DNA of 61,582 nt, from IMG/VR virus record IMGVR_UViG_3300028393_000068, positions 1 through 61,582 of that record. One strand, 5' to 3'. The position numbers and the translations under genes are program-made. This document shows positions 7,127 to 61,582 of this stretch, piece after piece; the stretch's first letter is position 1; the number at the start of each line of letters is the position of its first letter. This DNA is from a virus (Duplodnaviria > Caudoviricetes). The notes under the pieces were generated by a model. The model was given only the letters and a program-made list of their open reading frames with translations. It searched no databases and was not told the origin of the DNA.

Positions 7127-7507
7127 CTAGGGGGCTTCGGCCCCCTTCTTCTTTTTAGCTTTTTTAACAAGCCGTTCGTCGTGGTGGTGTATACGGTGGC
7201 AGTTGGCGCAGAGTACAACGCACTTCTTGACTTCTTCCATAGCACGCTTAAAGGCACGGTTTTTTATCAGTTTGTTGACTGACTCTTCTTTTGTACTGCT
7301 GTCTATGTGGTGGAAGTCAAACGTGGCTGGATGGTTTTGCCCACACTTCACGCAAGCTAATGTAGCTTTAAAGCTACGCCACTGATCTTTATACGCCTTG
7401 GCCGAGGCTTTACTTGCCGCAATTACAACCGCTTTATTGTTGGCATAGTACATACTTGCGTACGTTCTTTGTTTAGTTTGCTTAACTTTTGGGTCTTTAT
7501 ACGGCAT
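7127..7507 (-). CDS. HNH endonuclease family protein
   Basis: CVKCG...FDFHH...KCVVLCANCHRIHH zinc-HNH motif. Confidence 0.85.
   Translation of the reverse strand: MPYKDPKVKQTKQRTYASMYYANNKAVVIAASKASAKAYKDQWRSFKATLACVKCGQNHPATFDFHHIDSSTKEESVNKLIKNRAFKRAMEEVKKCVVLCANCHRIHHHDERLVKKAKKKKGAEAP
7129..7156 (+). terminator. Terminator hairpin GGGGGC-TTCG-GCCCCC
   Basis: 6-7 bp stem, UUCG loop and T-rich tail; overlaps the end of the convergent HNH gene. Confidence 0.7.
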
Positions 7508-7937
7508 GTTTAATCCGATACCGCCAGTACAACGCCGTTTTTAAACCCCAAGGTTGAGATGGCTCAAACATTTTGAAACCTGTAGATATCAAACTGTTAG
7601 CAGATGCGGGGTTTTCGTTGGTGTCAGTGATGACCCAATTCATGCCTAACGTTTTGGCTTTGCGAACCCGCGTTTTAATAAACCTCTTCTGAAGCCCGCG
7701 TCCACGATGAGCGCGTACAACACCTGCCCGACAAAGATACATAGTGTCAGACCAACGACTAGAGGGAACAACACCAGCGAACCCAGCAGCCTCACCGTTC
7801 TGTGTGTAAGCAACATACCAGCATCCTTGTGTGATTGGGTAAATTTTATCGTGGGGAAGACATGCTTTTTGAAGCAACGACAACAACTGCACCACCTCTG
7901 GCTGACGGGTATCAACAGGGACAATGCGGTATTTCAT
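7497..7937 (-). CDS. GNAT family acetyltransferase
   Basis: Motif A (GVVRAHRGRGLQKRFI) and NPASANSLISTGF. Confidence 0.85.
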   Translation of the reverse strand: MKYRIVPVDTRQPEVVQLLSLLQKACLPHDKIYPITQGCWYVAYTQNGEAAGFAGVVPSSRWSDTMYLCRAGVVRAHRGRGLQKRFIKTRVRKAKTLGMNWVITDTNENPASANSLISTGFKMFEPSQPWGLKTALYWRYRIKHAV

Positions 7938-17070: not shown

Positions 17071-18762
17071 ATGGCACAAGGTCTTTTTACACTCAGACAA
17101 GTTAACCAAGCCATTCGTCAAGGCGCATGGTCAGCATTTAATCCACCTCAATTTGTAGAGTATCTTTGCGTTGCTGGTGGTGGTGGCGGTGGTGGGACTA
17201 ACAATGCTGGTGGAGGTGGTGCGGGAGGTTTGTTAACAGGGATTCTTCCTGTAACTGCGGGTGCAACTCTAACTGTGACTGTAGGCGGTGGCGGCCCCGG
17301 CACATCAGGTACTACACCTGCAACAAATGGAGATAACTCTGTTTTTTCAACCATTACTGCTACGGGCGGGGGTGGCGGTTGCGGCGGTAATTCACTTACT
17401 AATATAGGTGCTAGTGGCGGTTCGGGTGGCGGTTCGGGATATGCAACTATTTCTTCTGCTGGTCTTGGAATAACGGGACAAGGAAATAATGGTGGCATTG
17501 GAAACAACGCTGGAGCGCCAGATTATTCTGGTGGTGGTGGTGGTGGGGCTGGAACAATTGGAATAAATGGTGTTGCTTCTGGTGGTGGTGACGGCGGCGC
17601 AGGAATTGCATCAGCGATCACTGGCACAGTAGTTACTTATGCTGGTGGAGGTGGTGCTGGAACTCAAGTTACCCCTACGTCGGCTGGTGGCGTTGGTGGC
17701 GGTGGTATTGGCGGTATATCAACGGTTTCTCCATCTGCCCCAACAGCAGGAGCGGCAAACACTGGTGGCGGCGGTGGCGGTGGTACTCAAGGCGGCGGCA
17801 CTACAGGTGGCGCAGGCGGTTCAGGCATCGTAGTAGTCAGATACCCCGGCTCTGTGCAGTTTTACACTGGTGGTAGTGTTACTTCTACAGGCAATTATAT
17901 TGTTCACACATTTACATCTTCAGGAACTTTGGCTCCTACAACCCCTTCAAATGCAGGGTTTAACGGATTTATAGTTGTTGGCGGTGGCGGTGGTTCTGGT
18001 GATACTGGCGCATACCCTCCAGATGGCGGTGGTGGCGGTGGCGGAGCAGGGGGCGCTCTTATTTACACCAACTACACTTGGTCTGGTACATACACAGTTA
18101 CCATAGGTGCTGGCGGTGCGGCCCGTACAAGCGGAACAAATACAACTTTTGTAACTGGCGCTACAACATGGACTTCTTATGGCGGTGGTAAGGGCGCTCA
18201 AAACTCTACATTTAATGCTGGTTCTGGTGGTTCAGGCGGTGGTGGTGCGGCTGGTACAATTACAGATTTTGGTACTTCTACACAAACCACACAATCTGGC
18301 GCTACAGGTTACGGGAACTCTGGTGGTATTGCCGCCCAGTCACCATATCGCGCTGGCGGTGGTGGTGGCGCTTTAGGTGCTGGTCAATCTGGAAACAATG
18401 GAACTACTATTTCAGGCTACGGCGGAACGGGCATTCAATTCCCGCCCGGTACAGCTAATTACTATGCTGGAGGAGGCGGTGGTGGTGGTTGGGGTAATGT
18501 TACAACTGGAGGTGCTGGTGGATTGGGCGGTGGGGGCGCAGGTGCAACTGTAGGTACAGGCACGGCTGGAACCGTTAATACTGGTGGTGGTGCTGGAGGC
18601 GGTGGATACATTTCTTCAGGAGGAGCCGCCGCTGGTGGTTCTGGAGTTGTTATTATTTGCTCAAGCACTGCGGCATCTAGCACAACTGGTTCTCCAGCAA
18701 TATCATCAAATGGTAGCAACTATGTCTACACATTTACAGGCTCTGGAACAATCACCTTCTAA
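17071..18762 (+). CDS. Glycine-rich adhesin-like protein B (2 domains)
   Basis: Two polyglycine domains, each closed by GGSG[IV]V[VI]. Confidence 0.75.
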   Translation: MAQGLFTLRQVNQAIRQGAWSAFNPPQFVEYLCVAGGGGGGGTNNAGGGGAGGLLTGILPVTAGATLTVTVGGGGPGTSGTTPATNGDNSVFSTITATGGGGGCGGNSLTNIGASGGSGGGSGYATISSAGLGITGQGNNGGIGNNAGAPDYSGGGGGGAGTIGINGVASGGGDGGAGIASAITGTVVTYAGGGGAGTQVTPTSAGGVGGGGIGGISTVSPSAPTAGAANTGGGGGGGTQGGGTTGGAGGSGIVVVRYPGSVQFYTGGSVTSTGNYIVHTFTSSGTLAPTTPSNAGFNGFIVVGGGGGSGDTGAYPPDGGGGGGGAGGALIYTNYTWSGTYTVTIGAGGAARTSGTNTTFVTGATTWTSYGGGKGAQNSTFNAGSGGSGGGGAAGTITDFGTSTQTTQSGATGYGNSGGIAAQSPYRAGGGGGALGAGQSGNNGTTISGYGGTGIQFPPGTANYYAGGGGGGGWGNVTTGGAGGLGGGGAGATVGTGTAGTVNTGGGAGGGGYISSGGAAAGGSGVVIICSSTAASSTTGSPAISSNGSNYVYTFTGSGTITF

Positions 18763-18771
18763 GGACAAAGC

Positions 18772-19635
18772 ATGAGCAATTTATTAGGTGGATTTCTTTC
18801 CGCAACCTTTAATCCACTGTCTGGTACACCTACGACTGTTGAATATCTTGTGGTTGCTGGTGGGGGTGGTGCAAGTGGCGACCGTGGCGGCGGTGGAGGT
18901 GCTGGTGGTTTATTGCAAGCGGCTGGTTTTGCCGTTGCCGCTGGGTCTGCTTTAACGGTTACTGTAGGCGCAGGTGGTGCGGGTGGTTTGCACTCAGCAA
19001 GCGGTGGTGCTGGCTCAAATTCTGTATTTTCTTCTATTACCTCTACGGGTGGTGGTATTGGCGCAAGGAGTGGCGCTCAAGCAACTACTGGTGGTTCTGG
19101 CGGTGGCGGTTGGAGTGGAGCAAATCAAACTGGCGCGGCTGGAACTTCTGGTCAGGGCAATGCTGGTGGCAACGGCCCTGCTAGTGGAGGAAATTATCCT
19201 GCGGGCGGCGGCGGGGGCGCTGGTTCGGTAGGCGATAGTCCAATAGCAAGTGGAACAACTGGCGGTGCTGGTGGCACAGGGATGTGTTCTACCATTACTG
19301 GGCAACGTGTTTTTTATGCTGGCGGCGGTGGCGGTGGAACATTTGGTACTAGCGCACAAAGTAGTCTTGGTGGCGCAGGTGGTGGTGGCGCAGGTGCTGG
19401 TGCTACTGCTGGCAATGGTACAAGCGGAACTTCAAACACAGGTGGCGGGGGAGGTGGCGGTTGGTACAACGATGCAACGCAATACTATGGCGGCTCTGGC
19501 GGCTCTGGCATCGTAGTCATCCGCTACCCCTCATCACAATCAGCACCCACTTCCACAACAGGAAGCCCTCAGATAAACTACGCAGACGGGTATCAGATTT
19601 ATACTTTCACATCTTCTGGCACTATCACTTTTTAA
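18772..19635 (+). CDS. Glycine-rich adhesin-like protein C (1 domain)
   Basis: VEYLVVAGGG...GGSGIVVIRY...SGTITF. Confidence 0.75.
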   Translation: MSNLLGGFLSATFNPLSGTPTTVEYLVVAGGGGASGDRGGGGGAGGLLQAAGFAVAAGSALTVTVGAGGAGGLHSASGGAGSNSVFSSITSTGGGIGARSGAQATTGGSGGGGWSGANQTGAAGTSGQGNAGGNGPASGGNYPAGGGGGAGSVGDSPIASGTTGGAGGTGMCSTITGQRVFYAGGGGGGTFGTSAQSSLGGAGGGGAGAGATAGNGTSGTSNTGGGGGGGWYNDATQYYGGSGGSGIVVIRYPSSQSAPTSTTGSPQINYADGYQIYTFTSSGTITF

Positions 19636-20264
19636 TGCAAGTCTTTGTTTACACCATCACTAACAAGATCAACATGAAACAGTATGTTGGTATTACACGC
19701 AACATGCGTCAGCGTTGGGGTGAGCATAAACTTCCATATAACAATAAGACCTCTATGGGCAAAGCCATACACAAGTATGGTCAGCAGAATTTTGAAATGG
19801 TGCAAATTGCAAGCGCAACAAGCTGGGCCAATGCTCAGTTGGTTGAGAAGGCATTGATTAAACAACTTAACACCAGAGTGCCAAATGGGTACAATTTGAC
19901 AGATGGTGGTGATGGAACGCTTGGGTTTAAACACACGGCAGAAGAATGCCAACGCAGAAGCGAAAGGTGTCCAACTCGCAATCCAGAAACCATGAAGTTG
20001 ATTGCCGACAAACAACGAGGCGTTAAGCGCCCCCATACATCGGGTGAAAATAATCCTTTGTTTGGTAGAACTGGGTCAAAATCACATATGACTAAACACA
20101 TTGTGGTTGCTACAAATATGGCAACTCAAGAGCAAAGAACTTTGATTGGCGCTAAAGCCATTAAAGAGGCGGGATTTAATAGATCGCATGTATACGCATG
20201 TGCTAATAAGCAACGCAAAACCCATCAACAGCACACTTTTGAATTTCAAGGAGAATTAGCATGA
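19635..20264 (+). mobile_element. Free-standing GIY-YIG homing endonuclease with NUMOD3-like motifs
   Basis: VYTITN..N.KQYVGIT...R...H, YNLTDGGDG, GENNPLFG; true start 19635 (TAATG overlap). Confidence 0.85.
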
Positions 20265-20620
20265 GCCATTTTGCCAAGGTCGAGAACGGAATTGTCACAT
20301 CAGTTATTGTGATTGAGCAAGACGTTTTGAATTTAGGTCATTGGGGTGATCCCGCTTCCTATGTCCAAACAAGTTACAACACCTCTGGTGGAGTTCACTT
20401 GCAAGGTGGTACGCCACTGCGTAAGAATTTTGCTGGCATCGGTTACACATACGACTCAGGCCGTGATGCGTTTATTCCTCCCAAACCATTTGCATCTTGG
20501 TTGTTGGATGAAGGCACTTGTCAGTGGAGCGCACCCACAGCTATGCCCGTAGAAGAAGGCAAACGCTTTACATGGGACGAACCCACAACATCTTGGGTTG
20601 AAGTCGTAGTACCCGCCTAA
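20261..20620 (+). CDS. Putative tail fibre assembly/accessory protein
   Basis: MSHFAKV...RKNFAGIGYTYD..RDAFIPPKPF.SW...WDE. Confidence 0.6.
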   Translation: MSHFAKVENGIVTSVIVIEQDVLNLGHWGDPASYVQTSYNTSGGVHLQGGTPLRKNFAGIGYTYDSGRDAFIPPKPFASWLLDEGTCQWSAPTAMPVEEGKRFTWDEPTTSWVEVVVPA

Positions 20621-20631
20621 TAGGAATAATC

Positions 20632-22359
20632 ATGGCTCAATACAGTGGAATGTGGACGCTAAGTCAGGTCAGTCAAGCCGTAAAAGACTTGAACTGGACG
20701 GGTCTACCTCCGTCTGTTGTTGAGTATTTGATTGTTGCTGGTGGGGGTGGCGGTGGTCGTGAAAATTACCAATCTGGATGCGGAGGCGGAGGTGGTGCTG
20801 GTGGATTGCTTGCAGGCTATGCGGGTATTACATCTGGTACTTCTTACTTTGTAACAGTTGGCGCGGGCGGAGCAGGTGTAGCGGCAACTCCAGCAAGTAA
20901 CGGCAACATTGGAAATAATTCCGTTTTTGACGCTACCACTTCTGGTGCATTTACAGGGCGTATTGTTGCCACTGGTGGTGGAGGCGGTGGTGGTGGAACA
21001 AGTATTCCAGCCACAGCGGGTAGTGGTGGTTCTGGTGGTGGTGCGGGCCAAGCAACAAATATGTCTCCCGGCTCTGGAACATCAGGGCAAGGCAATAGAG
21101 GCGGTAATGGAACTTCTACAAGTGCTGGCGGCGGGGGTGGCGGTGCAGGCACACAAGGGTTGGATGGCCCATCATCAGGCTCATTCGGAACAAATGGTGG
21201 TGCAGGCATTTCTTCGGCTATATCTGGAACTGTTACTGCATACGCTGGCGGTGGTGGTGGGGCTGGTGGCAATGGTAGCGGTACTAATGGTATCGGTGGA
21301 GTTGGCGGTGGTGGTAATGGAATGTTGTACAGCAGTACACAAGGAACCGCAGGGACAGCTAACACGGGTGGCGGTGGTGGTGGGAACGCAAACAGTGGCG
21401 CAACAAGTGCGGCTGGCGGTTCAGGCATTGTCATTCTTCGCTACCCCGGCTCAATTCAATATTTCACTGGTGGCACAGTAACTTTAAGCGGCATCAGCCC
21501 TAACGGTTATTTTGTTGTTCACACATTTACTTCGTCTGGCACTTTAGCGCCCACTGCGGCTACAAATTTAGCCCCTACACTGCCTTCTAATACGGCAGTC
21601 TTCTATACATCAGGCGTGTGGACTGCACCCGCAGGCGCTACGCAAGTTCAATATCTTGTGGTAGCTGGTGGTGGTGGCGGAGGAATGACTAATACTGCTG
21701 GCGGTTACTCAGCCGCAGGCGGTGGCGGTGCTGGTGGATTCTTAACGGCTACTGGTCTTTCTGTAACTGCTGGGACTACATACACTGTAGTAGTTGGCGC
21801 TGGTGGTGCTGGTGCAGTAACAGAAGGCACAGGGGTTACAGGTTCAAGTTCTATTTTTAGTTCTATTACTGCTACAGGTGGCGGCGGCGGCGGTAATGCT
21901 GGCGCTACTGCTAACAATGGTTTACCGGGCGGATCGGGGGGTGGTTCTTCTGGCGGTAGTGCGGGACAGACAGGCGGGGCGGCTTCTCCAGCAGGTCAAG
22001 GTAATGCTGGCGGTTCCGTTACTGGAAATATTTTTGGTGGTGGCGGTGGCGGTGGTGCAGGAGCCGCCGGTTCGGGCGGTACTGGACAATACAATGGTTA
22101 CGCTGGCGGTATTGGTTTGACATCTTCTTTAATTGGTACATCAACCTACTATGCTGGCGGTGGTGGTGGCGGAGGTTATTACTTAAATACTGGTGGTGCT
22201 GGTGGTACAGGTGGTGGTGGTACAGGCGCATCAAACGTCCCCGCAATTGCTGGAACTACTAACACAGGCGGTGGTGGTGGTGGCAATAATGGAACCTCAA
22301 GCACAATACAAGTTGGCGCTAACGGCGGCTCTGGCATCGTAATCATCAAGTGGAGCTAA
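20632..22359 (+). CDS. Glycine-rich adhesin-like protein D (2 domains)
   Basis: Two polyglycine domains; ends GGSGIVIIKWS. Confidence 0.75.
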   Translation: MAQYSGMWTLSQVSQAVKDLNWTGLPPSVVEYLIVAGGGGGGRENYQSGCGGGGGAGGLLAGYAGITSGTSYFVTVGAGGAGVAATPASNGNIGNNSVFDATTSGAFTGRIVATGGGGGGGGTSIPATAGSGGSGGGAGQATNMSPGSGTSGQGNRGGNGTSTSAGGGGGGAGTQGLDGPSSGSFGTNGGAGISSAISGTVTAYAGGGGGAGGNGSGTNGIGGVGGGGNGMLYSSTQGTAGTANTGGGGGGNANSGATSAAGGSGIVILRYPGSIQYFTGGTVTLSGISPNGYFVVHTFTSSGTLAPTAATNLAPTLPSNTAVFYTSGVWTAPAGATQVQYLVVAGGGGGGMTNTAGGYSAAGGGGAGGFLTATGLSVTAGTTYTVVVGAGGAGAVTEGTGVTGSSSIFSSITATGGGGGGNAGATANNGLPGGSGGGSSGGSAGQTGGAASPAGQGNAGGSVTGNIFGGGGGGGAGAAGSGGTGQYNGYAGGIGLTSSLIGTSTYYAGGGGGGGYYLNTGGAGGTGGGGTGASNVPAIAGTTNTGGGGGGNNGTSSTIQVGANGGSGIVIIKWS

Positions 22360-44147: not shown

Positions 44148-44171
44148 TGTGCTTTCTCCTGTGTTTGTTTT

Positions 44172-44221: not shown

Positions 44222-45781
44222 TCATGAATTTATTTCTGTGTCGAACATCTCGGTAAGTAAAGAGTTATCACTTACTTTGTCTTGTAATGCTTTAAACATC
44301 TTCTTCTCAATCGGGCTACCCTGAATGTGTATCACAGTAACTTTGTCGGAGTCTTGACCTTTGCGGTCGGCTCGTGCTATGCACTGCACGTATTGCTCCA
44401 CGCTCATGAGTGGCCCATAAAAAATCACCGTGTCTGCGGCTGTTAGGGTAATCCCGTGTGCAGTAGCTTGCGGTTGCATCACCAATACGCGAGGCTCTGA
44501 CTCGTTTTGGAATCGCCTGATAATGTCTGCGCGTTTGGGCGGTGTCACACTGCCGTGGATGCACTCGTTTGGTATACCTCGGTTTGAGAGGTGCGTGTGT
44601 ATCGTGTCGATGATGCTTCGGAACAGAGCAAAGATGATGACCTTACGCGTTGTCTCTTCCAAGATTTCCTCCAGTACACCAAGGCGAGGCGCTGAGTCAA
44701 ACTCCACAACTTCCTTGTCGTCTGTGTAGGCCGCACCACAACTGATCTGCAAGAGCTTGGATACCCCTGCGGCGGCGTTGACTGCACTGATTGTCTCGCC
44801 TGCCGCGTACACCATCATTTTGTCTTTAAGAAGGTTGTAGTACTTGGCCTGTTGGGGGGTCAAAGCGATCTCCCGCGTCATGGTGATAACAGGGGGTAAA
44901 TCCAAACACGCTTCTTTTGTGAAGCGTATTGCTGGCTGTAGCGCTTCATGTACCAATTCTGGTGCGTTTGCTTTTGCCGCCCACTTAAACAGCGTTACCT
45001 TGTGCATGACCTGATCTCGCCATGCCGTGAAGAACTTGGGCACACCTTCGGGGTTGACCAACTTGGCCAAGCCGTACGCATCAGCAGGCGACTGCGATGC
45101 GGGCGTGCCTGTCATCATCCACAGGAAGGTGTTGGGCTTGATGATGGACTTGAGCGTCTTCCAACGTTTGGTTGTAATTGTCTTGTACGCATTAGCTTCG
45201 TCAACAATTACCAAGTCAAAGCGGCCATCATTATTGATCTCGTCAGCAATTAGATTTAACCCATCGTAGTTGGCGATTACAAATTCGTAATCTTGCTGAA
45301 CCATCTCGATACGGCGACTAGCCTGCGCATGGTGCGCGACGATGGCAGAGCGATGGATGATGCTGTTGTTCAAGTCACCAAGCCACGCAGACTGCATGAT
45401 CGACAAGGGGCACAGTATTAAACAACGCCTGACTTCACCACGTTGCATCAGGTAGTCAGCCGCCCACAGCGCAGATAAAGTTTTACCAGTACCCGGCTCG
45501 CTAAACACAAAGGCTTTACGGTTAAGCGTTAAGAAAGACGATGTATCTTTTTGGTGAGCCATGGGTGTATATTTACCCGGCCAGTTATATCTCCTAGTGA
45601 TAGGCGACTGAATGTTTTTCACACCAAGATTGCGCAGTACCCGACATTCATCAAGACCCCAATACACAGCCACGTCGTAGCCACCATCTATACGCTCGAT
45701 GATTTTGTGTTTTGGGATTACCTGATACTTCTCTGGGTTACGGGTGCGAAAGACAAGTGCTTTGTCTTCGATGATTTCCAT
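44222..45781 (-). CDS. SNF2-family helicase
   Basis: EPGTGKT, IVDEA, MTGTP, HGITLT, QCIARADRKGQ. Confidence 0.9.
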   Translation of the reverse strand: MEIIEDKALVFRTRNPEKYQVIPKHKIIERIDGGYDVAVYWGLDECRVLRNLGVKNIQSPITRRYNWPGKYTPMAHQKDTSSFLTLNRKAFVFSEPGTGKTLSALWAADYLMQRGEVRRCLILCPLSIMQSAWLGDLNNSIIHRSAIVAHHAQASRRIEMVQQDYEFVIANYDGLNLIADEINNDGRFDLVIVDEANAYKTITTKRWKTLKSIIKPNTFLWMMTGTPASQSPADAYGLAKLVNPEGVPKFFTAWRDQVMHKVTLFKWAAKANAPELVHEALQPAIRFTKEACLDLPPVITMTREIALTPQQAKYYNLLKDKMMVYAAGETISAVNAAAGVSKLLQISCGAAYTDDKEVVEFDSAPRLGVLEEILEETTRKVIIFALFRSIIDTIHTHLSNRGIPNECIHGSVTPPKRADIIRRFQNESEPRVLVMQPQATAHGITLTAADTVIFYGPLMSVEQYVQCIARADRKGQDSDKVTVIHIQGSPIEKKMFKALQDKVSDNSLLTEMFDTEINS

Positions 45782-45792
45782 GCTTTCTCCGT

Positions 45793-47800: not shown

Positions 47801-47811
47801 ACTTTCTCCTT

Positions 47812-49782: not shown

Positions 49783-50095
49783 TCTTCTCCTTGAGTTTGG
49801 CTTCTATTTTTCTGGCGTCATTGAGTAACACGTATACGTTTATGTCTGAATTGGATGTACCAATGTGACCAAAGATTTCCAAGATTTCCTCATCCGTCAG
49901 CCCTACCCATGTGCGTTGTACTTGCGGAGGAACACCATCTTCATAAACAGTATTACAAACAACACATTGCAACCTGACAGGCTCATCCTTTGCTTCTAGT
50001 GCGGCTTTAATAGCGGTGATGGCTTCATCTGCCCTGTGATAATCGGCATTGTCCAATGCTTCTATTGCCATGCGTAATGCTTCGTCTTTGGTCAT
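49766..50095 (-). CDS. Hypothetical protein
   Basis: WVGLTDEE...IEAKLKEKN family motif. Confidence 0.65.
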   Translation of the reverse strand: MTKDEALRMAIEALDNADYHRADEAITAIKAALEAKDEPVRLQCVVCNTVYEDGVPPQVQRTWVGLTDEEILEIFGHIGTSNSDINVYVLLNDARKIEAKLKEKNDRTL

Positions 50096-53270: not shown

Positions 53271-53291
53271 AGCTTTCTCCTTAGTTTTGCC

Positions 53292-55357: not shown

Positions 55358-57106
55358 TTAGGTTGCTTCGAGCACATGTGGTGACGATGCGTTGGAGAGA
55401 ATGATTAGGTCAGCGCTGATGTCTGCACGGCAGTTGATACGCACAGCGTCCCACCCTACTTGGTTGATGGTGGTCTGACTAATCAAGCGTCTAGTGATGA
55501 GGCGTCTGCCGTTGTGCAAGAGGGATATGCTGAACATCACATAGCCGTCATCTCTTGAGCGATCCTCGATCAACGAGCACTCATTCAGCATGGCCATGGT
55601 CAGTTGCCTAGCCACAACAACTTGCTCAACCGCGACAGTAGTATCCGCCTCGTCCTCGGCATCGTCATCCTTGTCAGCCGTAGCGTCAGCTATCTCCTGC
55701 GGTACGTAGTCATCGTGGTAACGCTCGCCCTTGTACTCGGTGAAGTCGGTGCAGTCGTCCGTGTACCAGTTGCATGATGCAACGCACTGCCATCCGTCAT
55801 CTTGCATACCCCACTCTTGGGTATCTTGGAACAAGCAGATACGCTCATCGTCTATCGTGTACCAGTCACCATTGATCTCGATGGCCTCATCCATCGGGGC
55901 GTACTCTCCGCACTCAAGCTCGATGATCTCGTTATCAGACAGGTAGTCCATATCGTAGGACTCACTCTGCGAGTCGACATACACCACGTTGTCCTCATGC
56001 ACATAGTATTGATTGCCTCGTCTGCCGTACACATAGGTGTAGTTATTGTCGCAACAACTATTGCACACATGCACGTCCTCTTGACGGCCAACCCAGTAGC
56101 CGTCATCGTTGGATGTACGATCACCGCAGTCATCGCAGTCGAAGTTGTCATCATCGTTATCCATCGCGGTCGGGTAACCGCCAGTCTGATCGCAGGTATA
56201 TTCTCCATCGCTGTCGATCACAAGCGCCTTAGCCCCTGCATCGATCGTCACATTCTTTTCACCGCCATCAAGATAGGGTGCAAGGAAGTGATCGCTTGCC
56301 TCGTGGTACGCCAACCTCTCGCCATCCTCCCAGTAGTTCTCCTTGGTATAGCCCTGCTCACGCAACCATGTATCCATGCCGTCATCTGTCTGACTGTAGC
56401 TGGTCGCATTGGCTGGGCGTAGGTAACTGCGAACGAAATACTTCTTGCCATCTATGGGCTGGGTCATACACAGCGCACGCCCCATGGTGTCATCGCCCTC
56501 GATGCGCACCGCCATGTGCCATCCGAACTTGGGGTCATACGCCTCGTAGGGGTGACGGGTCACGCCATCGCTACACTTAACGCCTCGGTCATCGCCCCAC
56601 ACCATGCACGACTGTGGCCCACGATGTAGGTGATAGATCATCTCAGCGGTAGTGTGTACGAACTGGAACCGAGCCGCTGACCCATAGCGTGAGACAAGAT
56701 CACGGATGGTGTGATCGGGTAAGTCGAAGTGTCGAGTGAGATACTTGCCGACCGATGTGACAGTCTGAATATCTTTCTGACCCTTGGCCTCGTTCTGTGT
56801 GTAGGCGATCTTGGAGCGATCACCTTGGGACTCATGCGGATGCTCAAGCAGTAGTTGATGCCAGTCTTTGGGACGGGCTAGCTTGATGGCCGCATTGATG
56901 ACGCCATGCACAGGGTACTTGTCGAACTCGCGGATGATCCAGTACCTAGCATCACGCTTGGCGCTGAGTGCCGCCATCTCCTCTCTGTCATCCGTGAGAT
57001 GCCATTGGCGTCTAAGCTCCCCATCAGTACGGCGTATCGCATCGTATGCTTGCCGTATGGTGTTGTCCATGTCTTGCCAGTCGTATGTATCGTTTGTTGT
57101 AGTCAT
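55358..57106 (-). CDS. Early protein with SCM/GRAL domain and Cys/acid-rich repeats
   Basis: GPQSCM, GRALC, FVRSY, PYLD; CDDC, CNSC repeats. Confidence 0.7.
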   Translation of the reverse strand: MTTTNDTYDWQDMDNTIRQAYDAIRRTDGELRRQWHLTDDREEMAALSAKRDARYWIIREFDKYPVHGVINAAIKLARPKDWHQLLLEHPHESQGDRSKIAYTQNEAKGQKDIQTVTSVGKYLTRHFDLPDHTIRDLVSRYGSAARFQFVHTTAEMIYHLHRGPQSCMVWGDDRGVKCSDGVTRHPYEAYDPKFGWHMAVRIEGDDTMGRALCMTQPIDGKKYFVRSYLRPANATSYSQTDDGMDTWLREQGYTKENYWEDGERLAYHEASDHFLAPYLDGGEKNVTIDAGAKALVIDSDGEYTCDQTGGYPTAMDNDDDNFDCDDCGDRTSNDDGYWVGRQEDVHVCNSCCDNNYTYVYGRRGNQYYVHEDNVVYVDSQSESYDMDYLSDNEIIELECGEYAPMDEAIEINGDWYTIDDERICLFQDTQEWGMQDDGWQCVASCNWYTDDCTDFTEYKGERYHDDYVPQEIADATADKDDDAEDEADTTVAVEQVVVARQLTMAMLNECSLIEDRSRDDGYVMFSISLLHNGRRLITRRLISQTTINQVGWDAVRINCRADISADLIILSNASSPHVLEAT

Positions 57107-57127
57107 TGCTTTCTCCTTTGGTTGTGG

Positions 57128-58709: not shown

Positions 58710-58834
58710 TATGTTCTCCGCTTTGATGTAATGGGGTTGATACCTGCTTTGATGACTGCGTAGAAGGTGACTTCACGCATGGGCTGGAAGCCCTTGGATT
58801 TTGCGTACGCGAGGTACTCTGTGTAGGTTGGCAT
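58709..58834 (-). CDS. 41-aa protein (not in ORF track)
   Basis: MPTYTEYLAYAKSKGFQPMREVTFYAVIKAGINP; SD AAGGAG. Confidence 0.6.
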   Translation of the reverse strand: MPTYTEYLAYAKSKGFQPMREVTFYAVIKAGINPITSKRRT

Positions 58835-58871
58835 GATTAAAACTCCTTTTGGTTAGACAAGATACGAAACA

Positions 58872-58927
58872 CCGAGAGAAGCTCTTTCTCTCGGGCTCGC
58901 AGAAAAAATCGGGTCACAGTGACCCGA
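58872..58927. repeat. Hairpin CCGAGAGAA/TTCTCTCGG plus palindrome TCGGGTCACAGTGACCCGA
   Basis: Same arrangement as 57348-57391. Confidence 0.75.
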
Positions 58928-58930
58928 AAA

Positions 58931-59320
58931 TCATGCAACGAGAACCGCCAAGGCTTTGCGTTGCTGTGCAGGGGTGAGTTTGCCAAAGGCTTCGATGATT
59001 TTCGCAACAGGGTCAAGCGGTTCTTTCTTTGCGCTCGATGCTCTACGGGTTGTCCCCTCGATCATGTGCATCATGTCACGCACCACAGTCTTCGTGGTTT
59101 CATACTTGGGGTGCTTCGTGATGAGTGACACCTTACCCGTGACATCGTGCACCTTGTACCCCGCCTTACCCGCCTTCGTCTTACCGCATGCCCACTCAAT
59201 GACGATGGGTCTGCATGCTTCGACTGTGGTGTAACCCGCATCTTGCATGTCTTGGATGAGTTTCACACGGGAACCAGCGAATGTGTCAAGTGCTGTAAAT
59301 GCGTTTGCTTTGTTTGTCAT
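58931..59320 (-). CDS. First gene of the leftward arm, hypothetical
   Basis: SD AAGGAG; 129 aa. Confidence 0.7.
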   Translation of the reverse strand: MTNKANAFTALDTFAGSRVKLIQDMQDAGYTTVEACRPIVIEWACGKTKAGKAGYKVHDVTGKVSLITKHPKYETTKTVVRDMMHMIEGTTRRASSAKKEPLDPVAKIIEAFGKLTPAQQRKALAVLVA

Positions 59321-59624
59321 GTTGTTTCTCCTTGAGGTTGATTGAATTGCCTAGGGCTGACTACCTTAGACAACTTCTATTGTGCATACACCCCATTTTG
59401 ATAGGCATCGAGAGCCTTTTTCGGGGCATTTTCGGGTCACTTTGACCCTGTTTTGGGGTGTTTTTGGCGGTATTCGACCCCCACCCACCCCCCACCACCA
59501 CAAATAGACCATGGCCCCTGCTGCCACATACGAACACTGTTCCATAACCGCAAAACAAACTTTGTAAAACCTTAGTACTAATTACCCCTAATCCAAAAAT
59601 TTTATAAAAATTTAGAAATACCCG

Positions 59625-59640
59625 TGTCTAACGTTAGACT
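59625..59640. promoter_or_regulatory. Operator-like palindrome GTCTAACGTTAGAC
   Basis: Perfect 14-bp palindrome of the TGTCTAA family. Confidence 0.6.
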
Positions 59641-59657
59641 CTCCATCTGTACAGACG

Positions 59658-59690
59658 AAAAAAAGCCCCACCAGCGTCAACCGGTGGGGC
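59658..59690 (-). terminator. Leftward Rho-independent terminator
   Basis: GCCCCACCGG-TTGACG-CTGGTGGGGC-TTTTTTT on the minus strand. Confidence 0.85.
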
Positions 59691-59743
59691 AAAGATGGCA
59701 ACTGAAACCATCAAGGAGAAAGCAAGCGCTTGCGCACCCACTC
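59658..59743 (-). ncRNA. Candidate trans-acting anti-RBS sRNA (~86 nt)
   Basis: Promoter TTGAAC-N17-TACACT, GCAA-tetraloop hairpin, CU-rich seed, second hairpin, 10-bp terminator and U7. Confidence 0.65.
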
Positions 59744-59749
59744 GATTTA

Positions 59750-59778
59750 AGTGTACATTATCTACATCGCAGGTTCAA
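59750..59778 (-). promoter_or_regulatory. Sigma70 promoter of the candidate sRNA
   Basis: -35 TTGAAC (59778-59773), 17-bp spacer, -10 TACACT (59755-59750). Confidence 0.6.
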
Positions 59779-59784
59779 GGGCTT

Positions 59785-60369
59785 ATGCGCAGAATGTTAG
59801 ACCATTTAATCAATTTCGAACCCGAAGTGCACGATCACTTAGGCGACTTCGTCCCTATGGATAAGACAGATCCGGCGGATGCCGTGGACGGAATGTCTAA
59901 TACTGTAGACTGGCTCAAAGAGTTAGGCGCTGTGGACACAGATACTTTGGTCAATGAGGCGCAAAGCCAAGCAGCACGTACTGCTTTCACCAACATCGTC
60001 ACCGCCAAACCTGCGGAAATGACGCATACCTCTCTGGCAAATATCAAAACGCCAGAAGCAGTCCAAAGATTAGTTGGTATGCTTTCCGCCTATGACTGGG
60101 AATTTGTACAGCAAGCCAAAGAGATTAGAGGCTATACAGTAGCCAAGCTGGTGGAAGAGACTGAGCACCCCAACGCCAACATCCGACTCAAAGCGCTAGG
60201 GTTGCTGGGTAAAGTGACAGAAGTGGGCTTGTTCACAGAGAAGATTGAAGTCAAGAAGACGGAGATGTCAGACGTTGAGCTTGAGAATCGTATTAAAGAA
60301 AAGCTTAATAGGTTCATGGGTGTTATAGATGTCATTGACGTGAGTAAAGAAAATTCCGATGAAGCGTGA
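59785..60369 (+). CDS. Putative terminase small subunit
   Basis: Directly upstream of and overlapping terL; RLKALGLLGK, MSDVELE; start likely 59785 or 59794 rather than 59695. Confidence 0.6.
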   Translation: MRRMLDHLINFEPEVHDHLGDFVPMDKTDPADAVDGMSNTVDWLKELGAVDTDTLVNEAQSQAARTAFTNIVTAKPAEMTHTSLANIKTPEAVQRLVGMLSAYDWEFVQQAKEIRGYTVAKLVEETEHPNANIRLKALGLLGKVTEVGLFTEKIEVKKTEMSDVELENRIKEKLNRFMGVIDVIDVSKENSDEA

Positions 60370-61582
60370 CGAATTTACAACACTTAGTAAGATTGAGCTT
60401 GAGGCCATGCAGAAGGCTTTGCCTTACATGACCGTGCAAGAAAAGATGGAGTTGTTTGACGACTTGGAGCTTAGAGAGAAACGCGCCAGTTTAAAAGCAG
60501 CCAGTACCAATATGCTTGGGTTTGCGCAGGCGGTGTACCCCGGATTTAAAGTTGGCCCCCATCATAAGAAGCTTGCCAGAATTTTTACTGACGTGGTCGA
60601 GGGCAGGAAGAAGCGCGTGATTATTAACATCGCGCCTCGTATGGGTAAGTCTGAGTTTTCGTCTTACTTGTTTCCTGCGTACTTCCTAGGTAAATACCCT
60701 GAGAAGAAAATCATCATGGGCACGCACACTGCAGGTCTGTCTGAAGACTTTGGCAGGCGCATACGTAACTTGATTGACTCTGATGAATACCGTGATGTTT
60801 TCCCCCAAACAATGGTTGCTGATGACCAAAAAGCTGCAGGAAAATGGAGTACCTCTGCAGGAGGCCAGTATTACGCCGCAGGCGTGGGCGGTGCTCTTGC
60901 TGGTCGTGGTGCTGATCTGTTCGTTATTGACGACCCACACTCGGAACAGGACGTAAAGTCCAACAGCCGCCTAGCTTTTGACACAGCTTGGTCTTGGTTC
61001 CAGACAGGCCCCTTGCAACGTTTGATGCCGGGTGGTGGGATTATCATTGTAATGACCCGTTGGTCGCTCCTAGACCTGACTGGGCGCCTAATTGACTACC
61101 AAACCAAGAACCCAGAAGCCATTCCATGGGAGATTGTGGAGTTGCCAGCCATTTTGAACGATGGGGAAGAAGACGAGAAGTCCCTATGGCCAGAGCAGTG
61201 GTCACTGGAAGCGCTCAAATCCACAAAGGCCAGTATTGATCCAAGGTATTGGAACGCGCAGTACATGCAGCAGCCTACATCGGAGAACTCGGCCATCGTT
61301 TCACGCAAGATGTGGCGTATTTGGGAAGACGAAGAACCGCCAAAGTGTGAATACATCATCCAGTCGTGGGATACGGCGTTTGAAACCAAGAACACATCCG
61401 ACTATTCCGCCTGCACAACGTGGGGCATCTTCTACAATGAGGAAGAAAATGACTCGCCCCAACTTATCCTGCTCGACGCTTTTAAAGATCGTATGGCTTT
61501 CCCTGAGCTTAAGGTGGTGGCGCTTAAGCAATACAAAGAGTGGGAACCTGATGCGTTCATTGTGGAGAAAACAGCGTCCGGG
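60359..61582 (+). CDS. terL: Terminase large subunit, N-terminal ATPase part (513 aa across the junction)
   Basis: Translated by hand: INIAPRMGKSE (Walker A), GRGADLFVIDDPH (Walker B), MTRW, QSWDTAF. Confidence 0.93.
   Translation, partial: MKRDEFTTLSKIELEAMQKALPYMTVQEKMELFDDLELREKRASLKAASTNMLGFAQAVYPGFKVGPHHKKLARIFTDVVEGRKKRVIINIAPRMGKSEFSSYLFPAYFLGKYPEKKIIMGTHTAGLSEDFGRRIRNLIDSDEYRDVFPQTMVADDQKAAGKWSTSAGGQYYAAGVGGALAGRGADLFVIDDPHSEQDVKSNSRLAFDTAWSWFQTGPLQRLMPGGGIIIVMTRWSLLDLTGRLIDYQTKNPEAIPWEIVELPAILNDGEEDEKSLWPEQWSLEALKSTKASIDPRYWNAQYMQQPTSENSAIVSRKMWRIWEDEEPPKCEYIIQSWDTAFETKNTSDYSACTTWGIFYNEEENDSPQLILLDAFKDRMAFPELKVVALKQYKEWEPDAFIVEKTASG
61446..61582. repeat. Terminal direct repeat (assembly overlap), copy 2
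   Basis: Matches 1-137 with one mismatch. Confidence 0.95.

Follow-up and report, generated by a model that had tools for sequence, protein, structure and literature searches.

A conserved minus-strand RNA gene in related phages, a candidate multi-target regulator whose seed varies together with early and replication ribosome sites

Positions 59658-59778 of the viral DNA analysed (the window, a stretch of 61,582 nt) hold a conserved, structured RNA gene on the minus strand, as shown by its anatomy, conservation, strand and structure. We regard it as probable that its product, an RNA of ~86 nt, is a trans-acting base-pairing sRNA that regulates a number of early and replication genes in the phage that encodes it. 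Comparisons among relatives indicate that the seed of this RNA and several early and replication ribosome sites, belonging to about six gene families, have co-evolved, and they suggest that one RNA would turn a set of early genes down. The gene is carried by an uncultured freshwater phage of about 61 kb, which is probably virulent. The parts of this non-coding gene, from the promoter-like TTGAAC-17-TACACT through two hairpins flanking an unpaired UCUCCUU to an 11-bp terminator with a U7 tract, are arranged as follows:

59773-59778, minus strand: -35-like hexamer TTGAAC, overlapping the plus-strand AAGGG ribosome site of the gene starting at 59794
Between the two hexamers, minus strand: spacer of 17 nt
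59750-59755, minus strand: -10-like hexamer TACACT (TATACT in some lineages)
59658-59743, minus strand: predicted sRNA, ~86 nt; start near 59743 placed from the -10 hexamer, end from the U-tract of the terminator
59720-59743, minus strand: hairpin 1, GAGUGGGUGC-GCAA-GCGCUUGCUU, 10 bp with many G-U pairs
59713-59719, minus strand: unpaired pyrimidine core UCUCCUU, a candidate anti-Shine-Dalgarno-like seed or toehold
59694-59712, minus strand: hairpin 2, GAUGGU-UUCAGUU-GCCAUC
59665-59690, minus strand: intrinsic terminator from a terminator scan, G+C-rich 11-bp stem with loop UGAC
59658-59664, minus strand: U7 tract of the terminator

An initial annotation of this DNA had described a leftward unit with promoter, hairpins, seed, terminator and U7, and all of these were located on the minus strand. 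Hairpin 1, which it had drawn with 5 bp, proved to contain 10 (GAGUGGGUGC/GCGCUUGCUU). The core of the seed, which it had taken to be unpaired, is indeed free over UCUCCUU, but the 5′ part of the proposed seed (UUGCUU) is contained in the 3′ arm of hairpin 1 and is paired, because this hairpin spans 10 bp. In the terminator scan the stem counts 11 pairs, including 8 G-C pairs; it closes a 4-nt loop and is followed by a T7 tail. A generic promoter scan did not call the sRNA promoter, which agrees with the consensus at 8 of 12 positions when 9 were required; we infer nonetheless that the locus would be transcribed from this candidate promoter. The 86-nt RNA folds with an energy of -41.9 kcal/mol, the mean of 200 shuffled sequences being -25.6 kcal/mol (z = -5.6), and none of the 200 was as stable.

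Searches with the flanking gene gave 420 relatives in the viral collection, and a second search gave 288 related stretches. Of 149 related loci, 143 keep the sRNA unit, in 71 different sequence versions (the loci with the unit correspond to about 108 distinct contigs by hand count). What these 143 loci have in common is the fixed distance between the promoter hexamers, the three helices, the pyrimidine linker and the final U-tract. In all 143 units TTGnnn lies 17 nt from TAYACT (18 nt in 3 loci), while the letters of the spacer vary. A CM alignment of the relatives showed 24 of 26 base pairs changing on both sides, distributed as 10/10 in hairpin 1, 6/6 in hairpin 2 and 8/10 in the terminator. 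The apex of hairpin 1 accepts insertions of 9 and 33 nt. Hairpin 2 occurs as 24 distinct stems in 70 folded variants, with 98.5% of its cells paired, and the terminator stem has 31 distinct forms, with 6-10 T after every one. On the CM-fitted alignment, 94.1% of 1614 pairing cells were paired, compared with 74.7% after shuffling (0 of 500 reaching the observed value) and 45-52% in slid controls; the CM rests on 10 close sequences and a structure written by hand, to which its alignment was fitted, so these pair counts are biased towards that structure. MAFFT alignments of all variants (A1 and A2) were inconsistent with the structure, and RNAalifold on A1 recovered only 7 pairs.

Folding of individual variants gave a concordant picture. 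The core was unpaired in the minimum-energy fold of 52/52 variants, with mean unpaired probabilities of 0.57-0.99. Of 71 variants, 70 formed at least three hairpins, always with a pyrimidine-rich linker between hairpins 1 and 2. The minus strand was more stable than the plus strand in 52/52 variants, by 10.8 kcal/mol on average, and in 70/71 of a larger set; helix positions show many G-U pairs, and a U-tract lies 3′ of a hairpin on the minus strand only. When the CM was used for searching, it found a single match in the window, at the sRNA locus, and matches in 69/69 related loci searched; two cultured distant phages gave none.

Three mechanically called ORFs overlap the unit (plus strand, 59695-60369; minus strand, 59634-59741 and 59612-59701). 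The initial annotation's statement that the unit has no ORF thus stands for conserved ORFs, since relatives disrupt these frames, but not for mechanical ones. The loop length of hairpin 2 changes by non-multiples of three, and 60/143 loci lack any in-frame start ahead of a conserved ATG, which in the window is at 59794. This is the start, conserved in relatives, of the rightward neighbour (59794-60369, plus strand), a 191-aa gene upstream of the large terminase, and the sRNA region is therefore non-coding. The 191-aa form gave only a weak, below-cut-off Pfam match (HEAT_2, E = 0.0031, 18.2 bits against 27.7), and the 224-aa form encoded by 59695-60369 gave no PHROG family. The plus-strand ORF from 59695 was rejected as a real gene because other indels and distant relatives break its frame. 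Three indels of hairpin 1 happen to be multiples of three. A role as leader or attenuator of the early operon was also rejected, since in relatives 130-200 nt of inserted sequence separate the terminator from the early promoter region.

The initial annotation had listed 17 gene starts complementary to the seed, and all 17 lengths were exact on recheck. For the 14 early genes the matches are 13 nt (one gene), 11 nt (five), 10 nt (five), 9 nt (two) and 8 nt (one); for the late genes at 20261, 4546 and 22654 they are 10, 6 and 7 nt, respectively. When gene starts were called heuristically for this analysis, matches of at least 8 nt were present at 12/34 early genes compared with 2/46 late genes; the wording that 'most early genes' are targeted was thus an overstatement. 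The motif AAGGAGAA occurs in the window 13 times on the early-arm sense strand and twice on the late sense strand, one of the two being the sRNA gene itself; across five genomes, the sense-strand counts were 13, 14, 11, 5 and 18 for early arms versus 2, 0, 2, 0 and 1 for late ones. Ribosome sites of the early arm share the signature GGAGAA(A). Net cofold energies of -8 kcal/mol or lower were obtained for 16/38 early and 5/47 late starts (Mann-Whitney p = 0.0007). Both the match counts and the cofold energies agree with the earlier proposal that the seed favours early and replication ribosome sites over late ones. The candidate target sites were:

57106-57118, minus strand: 582-aa early gene; 13-nt match AAGGAGAAAGCAA extending to the A of the ATG; cofold -15.3 kcal/mol
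45781-45790, minus strand: helicase gene; GGAGAAAGC plus the A of the ATG (lineage A)
44150-44160, minus strand: 137-aa gene; AGGAGAAAGCA (lineage A)
47802-47811, minus strand: gene of about 101 aa (101/102); AAGGAGAAAG
53272-53282, minus strand: 73-aa gene; AAGGAGAAAGC; cofold -16.0 kcal/mol
59325-59335, minus strand: first early gene (129 aa); TCAAGGAGAAA; cofold -16.0 kcal/mol
49785-49794, minus strand: DNA polymerase A gene; TCAAGGAGAA; best cofold energy, -17.8 kcal/mol

About 20 seed variants exist among the relatives, and comparison of orthologues showed that the ribosome sites of the helicase, 137-, 102-, 582- and 73/88-aa gene families follow the seed of their own lineage. The helicase orthologues match their own seed through GGAGAAGCAAC in lineage B, GAGAAGCAAATG in C and GAGAGAGAAACA in H2. 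In lineage B the 582-aa gene carries (C)AACCGAGGAGA, which matches the other flank of that lineage's seed. The 137-aa gene has AGGAGAAGCAA in B and AGGAGAAAAGTAA (13 nt) in J; the 101-aa gene GGAGAAGCAA(A) in B and C, and GAGAGAGAA in H2; the 73-aa gene AAAGGAGAAGT in E, AGAGAAGCAAA in I, and AGAGAGAAA in H and H2. The first early gene shows a 14-nt match, ACCTCAAGGAGAAA, in a relative whose hairpin 2 starts with GAGGU. Beyond the core, to either side, the matches continue into flanks that are specific to a lineage, tracking local changes in the hairpin arms. The DNA polymerase A site loses its match in lineages B, C, J and H2, and the helicase site of lineage I does not match the lineage I seed. 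The helicase protein matches phrog_62 (2e-105); five of the six co-varying targets have no PHROG or Pfam family at curated cut-off (Pfam only for the 101- and 73-aa proteins), the 137-aa protein giving only weak matches below cut-off to DUF7307 and Mu Gam. The Shine-Dalgarno consensus is of the GGAGG type, to which GAGAGAG is a poor match; lineages with the seed CUCUCUC nevertheless have GAGAGAG at their targets, which points to selection for the sRNA and not for the ribosome.

Co-variation of seed and ribosome sites in related phages, proposed as a check in the initial annotation, was thus found. When seeds were permuted among six lineages, the true assignment ranked 1st of 720 by match length and 3rd of 720 by duplex energy, the p-value floor being 1 in 720 and the lineages few and related. 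Control windows inside the same genes ranked 96/720 and 709/720. Without the six ortholog groups the rank was 153/720; about six families carry the co-variation, which does not support the earlier idea of a whole arm addressed through a shared ribosome-site barcode. The lineage's own seed was the best by match score in 4/6 lineages and by energy in 3/6: the ribosome sites of lineage B scored 36 with the A seed versus 22 with their own, and those of lineage I scored 6 with their own seed versus 9 with that of C.

In the mechanism we propose, host RNA polymerase would transcribe the sRNA leftward from the sigma-70-like promoter and stop at the strong intrinsic terminator. The 6-7 nt stretch UCUCCU(U), exposed between the two hairpins, would first pair with (A)AGGAGA, the purine-rich ribosome site on the mRNAs for the helicase, the DNA polymerase, the first early gene and the 582-, 137-, 101- and 73-aa proteins. 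From this toehold the duplex would grow into hairpin 1, whose G-U-rich base is weak, while in other lineages it would grow into hairpin 2; because hairpin 1 contains the bases that lengthen the match past the Shine-Dalgarno core, strand invasion would be needed. The resulting duplex, of 10-14 bp, would cover the Shine-Dalgarno sequence, often as far as the start codon, blocking ribosome binding and perhaps inviting RNase cleavage. As the RNA accumulates, early and replication proteins would be turned down. From the sequence data we infer both this repression by pairing and its timing. The free seed is 6-7 nt long, like any anti-Shine-Dalgarno stretch, and would thus also touch strong sites elsewhere.

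RNA-based (lysogenic) immunity of the P1 c4 or P4 CI type, a role suggested in the initial annotation, appears unlikely. No tyrosine integrase (PF00589) or serine recombinase (PF00239) was found in 5/5 genomes that are 95-100% complete, using searches that were positive in 14 and 12 of 14 reference genomes, which makes a lytic brake on early genes likelier than lysogenic immunity. A further reading, rather unlikely in our estimation, is that one master sRNA drives the early-to-late transition of a virulent phage and also provides RNA-level heteroimmunity between siblings without lysogeny. The RNA would read an extended Shine-Dalgarno 'address' common to early and replication genes, and double as a weapon or barrier between sibling phages; because address and seed would drift together, co-infecting relatives would have partly incompatible or cross-reactive codes.

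Other explanations of the locus were weighed against the multi-target sRNA. The RNA might act only in cis, as an antisense to the 5′ leader of the rightward terminase and late operon, much as sar acts on ant in P22, the likeness to early sites being incidental or secondary. The unit does lie head-to-head with the first rightward gene, whose ribosome site is overlapped by the -35 hexamer; a rightward transcript starting further left would be fully complementary to the sRNA, and there is a weak Rfam likeness to sar (16.5 bits). However, a scan of 58800-60400 found 0 rightward promoter-like sites, and the sRNA stops ~50 nt short of the rightward start, leaving its ribosome site uncovered (cofold with 59794, -3.3 kcal/mol). 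A role restricted to cis would also leave unexplained that ribosome sites up to 15 kb away change along with the seed, and we consider it improbable, although cis and trans roles could coexist. We give a similarly low probability to an sRNA aimed at host mRNAs, or acting as a general brake on translation, with the early-gene matches a by-product of strong ribosome sites. Such a role would fit the free core, a generic anti-SD-like hexamer, and the 3′ two-thirds of the sRNA, which align end to end with RF02278 (25.6 bits), as well as the CU-rich double-hairpin RNAs of Burkholderia, whose unpaired stretches are complementary to ribosome sites and one of which slows growth when overexpressed (PMC5688073). 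It would not account for the lineage-specific co-variation with the phage's own ribosome sites, nor for seeds without CC (CUCUCUC) being matched by phage GAGAGAG sites. A host-target role is nevertheless compatible with the multi-target sRNA and does not exclude it.

Alternatively, a protein of the phage, a nuclease or another RNA binder, might read the shared motif (GGAG followed by an A-rich tail) as its address on RNA, with all sites drifting along with the protein; this seems to us very improbable. The T4 RegB/S1 motif does resemble the early-arm GGAGAA(A) signature, and the plus strand of the locus bears the same motif as the ribosome sites, but there it has no start codon at a usable distance. 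The marks at the locus (U-tract, G-U pairs and a stability asymmetry in 70/71 variants) are those of a minus-strand RNA, and the matches run into lineage-specific flanks exactly as the hairpin arms change. The RegB family (PF10715) gave no match in 5/5 genomes, the control genomes being equally silent. Finally, the locus might encode no functional RNA: the terminator would insulate the early promoter from antisense read-through, the 'promoter' would be the neighbour's ribosome site, and the complementarity would be generic. The core is indeed complementary to the Shine-Dalgarno sequence, as the initial annotation warned, and the -35 hexamer overlaps a ribosome site. This reading is disfavoured, and we hold it to be extremely improbable, given the compensatory changes in all three helices, the -10 hexamer and 17-nt spacing kept while the spacer sequence varies, the unpaired core kept across 71 variants, and the co-variation of the seed with ribosome sites.

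The cmscan comparison suggested earlier gave no Rfam family at gathering score anywhere in the window. The Betaproteobacteria toxic small RNA RF02278 reached 25.6 bits against 50 (E = 0.0016-0.0057), positions 1-64 of its 64-position model aligning end to end with 59658-59721; Spot 42 (RF00021; 26.5 bits against 80), ctRNA_pGA1 (RF00236; 22.7 against 45) and sar (RF00262; 16.5 against 43) were likewise below threshold, and a search up to E = 10 gave 15 Rfam matches, none of them to a c4 family. The locus combines a candidate promoter and an intrinsic terminator without a conserved ORF, a single-stranded seed in a conserved structure, and complementarity kept by compensatory change, as expected of a trans-acting base-pairing sRNA. 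We read it as a new phage sRNA family without Rfam membership.

Several known systems resemble it in part. The sar RNA of P22, likewise small and phage-encoded, has a promoter and a terminator to itself, lies in a regulatory intergenic region and acts on a ribosome site; unlike the RNA proposed here, sar (RF00262) is cis-antisense and has a single target. The c4 RNA is processed from a longer transcript. In P1 and P7, c4 is a trans-acting structured phage RNA; its exposed complementary stretches pair around a ribosome site on an mRNA of the same phage and prevent translation. Its seed and target differ together between the phages, the basis of P1/P7 heteroimmunity (PMC12197685). However, c4 acts on a single operon (ant) in the service of prophage immunity, whereas the present sRNA would address several unlinked early and replication genes in a phage without detectable integrase. 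The RF02278-type Burkholderia RNAs (PMC5688073) are also short, with an unpaired CU-rich stretch against ribosome sites, a small hairpin and a terminator, and many sites are predicted for them; they have two unpaired CU-rich stretches, at the 5′ end and in the first hairpin loop. They are cellular and lack hairpin 1, whereas the phage sRNA has one CU-rich stretch (UCUCCUU) and a hairpin 2 loop, UUCAGUU, that is not CU-rich. T4 RegB, together with ribosomal protein S1, inactivates early mRNAs as a class through an extended Shine-Dalgarno signature, GGAG with an A-rich 7-mer after it (consensus GGAGAAUAAAA; PMC1702504). There the agent is a protein nuclease; in the window phage the proposed agent is an RNA, with its specificity in co-evolving base pairs.

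A cultured-phage collection gave no match to a DNA search with 59300-60400 or to a protein search with the 224-aa ORF. The large terminase had relatives at only ~50% identity: the Pelagibacter phages HTVC027P and HTVC023P, DSL-LC04 and 023Pt_psg01. No comparable unit was seen upstream of the terminase in DSL-LC04 or 023Pt_psg01, nor did the CM find one there. The gene and unit also occur on two short contigs (4.9 and 1.7 kb) binned with a Phycisphaerales MAG and a Limnohabitans MAG; contigs of this length are too short for the binning to be trusted as a host assignment. A metatranscriptome search identified three runs with small shares (0.17, 0.08 and 0.07), all as assembled contigs without strand or ends. 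Run X1, with 100%-identical pieces, contains 9 strandless assembled contig pieces, none over 59566-59818; in run X3 this region is covered at low depth by assembled contigs from relatives, without strand or ends.

Known phage small RNAs mostly have a single phage target (c4, sar, OOP) or act on host genes. A phage RNA addressing a set of its own early genes via their ribosome sites appears neither in the available portion of a 2025 phage-sRNA review (PMC12197685) nor in full-text literature searches. If confirmed, this sRNA would be the RNA equivalent of the way RegB shuts off early mRNAs in T4, and it would have come to light purely through comparative genomics, in a large family of uncultured lake phages. 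Its matched natural variants of seed and ribosome site would serve to study how short seeds gain specificity, and the pattern, a conserved structured unit whose seed co-varies with the ribosome sites of a gene class, could be searched for in other metagenomic phages.

The anatomy of the candidate leftward small RNA (sRNA) gene proposed in the initial annotation, with its promoter-like hexamers, hairpins, seed and terminator, was confirmed at 59658–59778 on the minus strand, and all 17 complementarity lengths reported for its seed were correct on recomputation. Its parts are as follows:

59778–59773, minus strand: −35-like hexamer TTGAAC (sequence)
17 nt, minus strand: promoter spacer (sequence)
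59755–59750, minus strand: −10-like hexamer TACACT (sequence)
59743–59720, minus strand: hairpin 1, 10 bp, G-U-rich (predicted fold)
59719–59713, minus strand: unpaired UCUCCUU (predicted fold)
59712–59694, minus strand: hairpin 2, 6 bp (predicted fold)
59690–59665, minus strand: terminator stem, 11 bp (terminator scan)
59664–59658, minus strand: U7 (terminator scan)

The terminator was recovered by a terminator scan; the promoter received no call in a promoter scan because it matches 8 of 12 consensus positions, the threshold being 9. The 86-nt RNA has a predicted folding energy of −41.9 kcal/mol (z = −5.6), a stability equalled by none of 200 shuffled sequences. Hairpin 1 had been drawn too short, since UUGCUU, formerly counted as seed, is its 3′ arm. 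At the apex of this hairpin, a 33-nt insertion with a small hairpin of its own (TTTGGCC-TTT-GGCCAAA) is present in related loci L004, L008, L013, L020–L031 and others, and a 9-nt insertion in other relatives; the window has neither.

The viral record that makes up the window is complete (61,582 bases; CheckV 100%; 50% G+C) and circularly permuted, since the large-terminase ORF leaves its end and resumes at its start. A leftward block (the early arm, 39.2 to 59.3 kb) includes a primase/helicase-like protein, a helicase, DNA polymerase A, a PD-(D/E)XK nuclease and a peptidase. The remaining genes run rightward, beginning with a 191-aa gene and then the large terminase, by which the nearest cultured relatives (∼50% identity) are Pelagibacter phages HTVC027P and HTVC023P together with lake and marine phages. 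Two minus-strand ORFs (126 and 146 aa) lie at 7127–7937 within the otherwise rightward late arm. The late plus-strand ORFs 17071–18762, 18772–19635, 19461–20264 and 20632–22359 hold repeated GGAGGTGG-type stretches, which suggests from sequence that they encode glycine-rich repeat proteins; these repeats confounded the heuristic picking of start codons in the region 17071–22359.

Downstream of the sRNA, in the region 59626–59639 (and 59601–59631), a perfect 14-bp palindrome, GTCTAACGTTAGAC, lies ∼20 nt from the terminator. It shares bases with a −35-like TTAGAC, after which comes an AT-rich stretch containing TATAAA, and relatives retain the palindrome with symmetric changes (GTCAATCGTTTGAC, GTCCAACGGTTGAC); the region resembles the promoter of the early leftward genes together with an operator. 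Another palindrome, GGAACAGTGTTC, which relatives conserve as GGAATAGTGTTC, occupies 59532–59543 in the early leader region, and a tract on the minus strand at 59478–59499, TGGTGGTGGGGGGTGGGTGGGGGTC, kept as G runs in distant relatives, might be a G-quadruplex, an origin or a packaging signal. In L054, L080, L110, L113, L116, L119, L120, L121 and L123, ∼130–200 extra nt separate the sRNA terminator from the palindrome and early promoter region; in L054, ARAGORN reported an unusual tRNA-like gene (4-base anticodon) at 2758–2830.

Searches of the viral collection with the rightward neighbour protein gave 420 and 288 related stretches. The whole sRNA unit was present in 143 of the 149 loci compared (∼108 distinct contigs by hand count), several of the other six ending at a contig edge, and 71 distinct unit sequences were found. 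Two short contigs carrying the neighbour gene and the unit, L177 and L178, had been placed in MAGs of Phycisphaerales and Limnohabitans; they are probably mis-binned viral contigs, of insufficient length for host assignment. The TTGnnn and TAYACT hexamers are kept at a 17-nt spacing (18 nt in three loci) around a spacer of variable sequence, and substitutions concentrate in the spacer, the start-site surroundings, the loops and compensating stem pairs, with 28 distinct versions of the base of hairpin 1, 24 of the hairpin-2 stems and 31 of the terminator stems. A covariance model derived from ten closely related sequences gave exactly one strong match in the window and one in each of 69/69 related loci, always where expected and on the expected strand, plus three weak matches (E ∼0.5), and no match in two cultured distant phages. 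In the alignment fitted to this model, which itself favours the structure, 94.1% of 1614 cells pair, a large margin over column shuffles (74.7%; 0/500 reached the observed value) and slid partners (45–52%), and 24 of 26 base pairs show changes on both sides. Judged by this conservation, the locus is a conserved RNA gene.

A plus-strand ORF from 59695, present in the ORF listing of the window, overlaps the unit, but was refuted as a real gene. The hairpin-2 loop differs by 5–9 nt among relatives, putting the ATG at 59695 out of frame; L053 has a 1-nt indel that disrupts the reading frame starting at the next ATG; and distant relatives lack an upstream start codon altogether. The conserved ATG TTA GA(Y) that begins the rightward neighbour gene (59794 in the window) has no in-frame start ahead of it in 60 of 143 loci. 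By these comparisons the region is non-coding. The minus-strand fold was the more stable in 52/52 variants (mean difference 10.8 kcal/mol) and in 70/71 of a larger set, many stem positions are G-U on the minus strand, and only on that strand does a T-run lie 3′ of a G+C-rich hairpin; these modelled and positional grounds assign the RNA to the minus strand.

The pyrimidine stretch between hairpins 1 and 2 was unpaired in every fold computed. The form UCUCCUU accounts for 32 of 70 folded variants, and most of the rest carry CUCCU, UCUCCU or similar; in some lineages the stretch consists of CU repeats lacking CC (e.g. UUCUCUCUCUU, UCUCUU), and relatives show ∼20 seed variants in all. The sRNA belongs to no Rfam family: the best likenesses, both below threshold, were to Spot 42 (26.5 versus 80 bits) and to RF02278, the 'toxic small RNA' of Betaproteobacteria (25.6 versus 50 bits), which aligned over its full length with the seed, hairpin 2 and terminator. 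Burkholderia RNAs of the latter type are described in PMC5688073 as having unpaired CU-rich stretches complementary to ribosome sites. The sRNA is a new family outside Rfam, of an already known kind of regulator.

Using our own heuristic gene calls and starts (34 early and 46 late genes), matches to the seed region of at least 8 nt were found in 12/34 early versus 2/46 late genes, and of at least 10 nt in 10 versus 1. Independently of gene calls, AAGGAGAA occurs in the window 13 times in early-arm sense, 0 times in early-arm antisense and twice in late sense, one of the latter being the sRNA gene itself; early/late sense counts in four other genomes were 14/0, 11/2, 5/0 and 18/1. Most early sites, but not late ones, have GGAG then A-A. 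Net cofold energies, including the unfolding cost of both partners, had medians of −7.0 kcal/mol for early and −3.4 for late starts, and reached −8 kcal/mol in 16/38 versus 5/47 (Mann–Whitney P = 0.0007). The best predicted partners were the starts at 49782 (polymerase), 53270, 59320, 57106, 52321, 44147 and 54178.

Co-variation of seed and ribosome sites among related phages was then sought in nine further genomes or long contigs, whose early genes were called and clustered into orthologs. Orthologous early sites track the seed of their own lineage:

Ribosome sites of early genes by lineage of related phages (the window belongs to A).
Helicase: A, GGAGAAAGC followed by ATG; B, GGAGAAGCAAC; C, GAGAAGCAAATG (12 nt); H2, GAGAGAGAAACA (12 nt)
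Seeds for the helicase comparison: A, GCUUUCUCC; B, GUUGCUUCUCC; H2, UGUUUCUCUCUC
137-aa gene: A, AGGAGAAAGCA; B, AGGAGAAGCAA; J, AGGAGAAAAGTAA (13 nt)
101/102-aa gene: A, AAGGAGAAAG; B and C, GGAGAAGCAA(A); H2, GAGAGAGAA
582-aa gene: A, AAGGAGAAAGCAA; B, (C)AACCGAGGAGA, which pairs with the B seed on its other flank
73/88-aa gene: A, AAGGAGAAAGC; E, AAAGGAGAAGT; I, AGAGAAGCAAA; H, AGAGAGAAA
First early gene: A, TCAAGGAGAAA; relative with hairpin 2 starting GAGGU, 14 nt (ACCTCAAGGAGAAA)

When the seeds of six lineages were permuted against their six early arms, the true assignment had the top match score of all 720 (108; 1/720) and the third-best energy (3/720); control windows inside the same genes gave 96/720 and 709/720. 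The own seed scored best in four of six lineages; B sites prefer the A seed (36 versus 22 for their own), I sites slightly prefer the C seed (9 versus 6), and the lineage-I helicase site does not match its own seed. Dropping any one ortholog group left the rank at 1–4/720, dropping three gave 21/720 and six 153/720; the signal is therefore carried by ∼6 gene families. The interpretation first given, of one RNA directed at early genes through their shared ribosome sites, is supported in its core by the early/late bias and the co-variation; its reach, a whole arm, had been overstated.

The sRNA might instead be cis-antisense to the rightward leader or act on host targets, either of which could coexist with pairing to early ribosome sites; a protein might read the shared ribosome-site motif; or the locus might have no function. 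Each explains the co-variation less well, and none accounts for it as well as pairing of the seed with early ribosome sites, for which this co-evolution, seen in few lineages (six permuted), is the decisive sequence evidence. At the level of sequence and predicted fold, the data demonstrate that the minus-strand unit is conserved and structured, and that its single-stranded core, with the stem bases next to it, co-varies with ribosome sites of early and replication genes.

The sRNA would be transcribed by the host polymerase and dock on a ribosome site through a 6–7 nt toehold, after which hairpin 1 would open at its weak G-U/A-U base (in lineage B, hairpin 2 would open instead). The resulting 10–14 bp duplex would cover the Shine–Dalgarno sequence and start codon, blocking translation initiation. 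This resembles T4 RegB/S1, which, according to PMC1702504, inactivates early mRNAs at GGAG plus an A-rich tail: early mRNAs would be shut off as a class via a ribosome-site signature, here with an RNA as the reader. A search for the RegB family found no match, and was also silent on its control genomes. As in P1/P7 c4, whose seed and target differ jointly between phages (PMC12197685), seed and target vary together. Since neither a tyrosine integrase nor a serine recombinase domain was detected in five of five near-complete genomes of the phage family, RNA-based prophage immunity, as first suggested, is less likely; the sRNA more likely acts as a brake on, or shut-off of, early and replication proteins in lytic growth.
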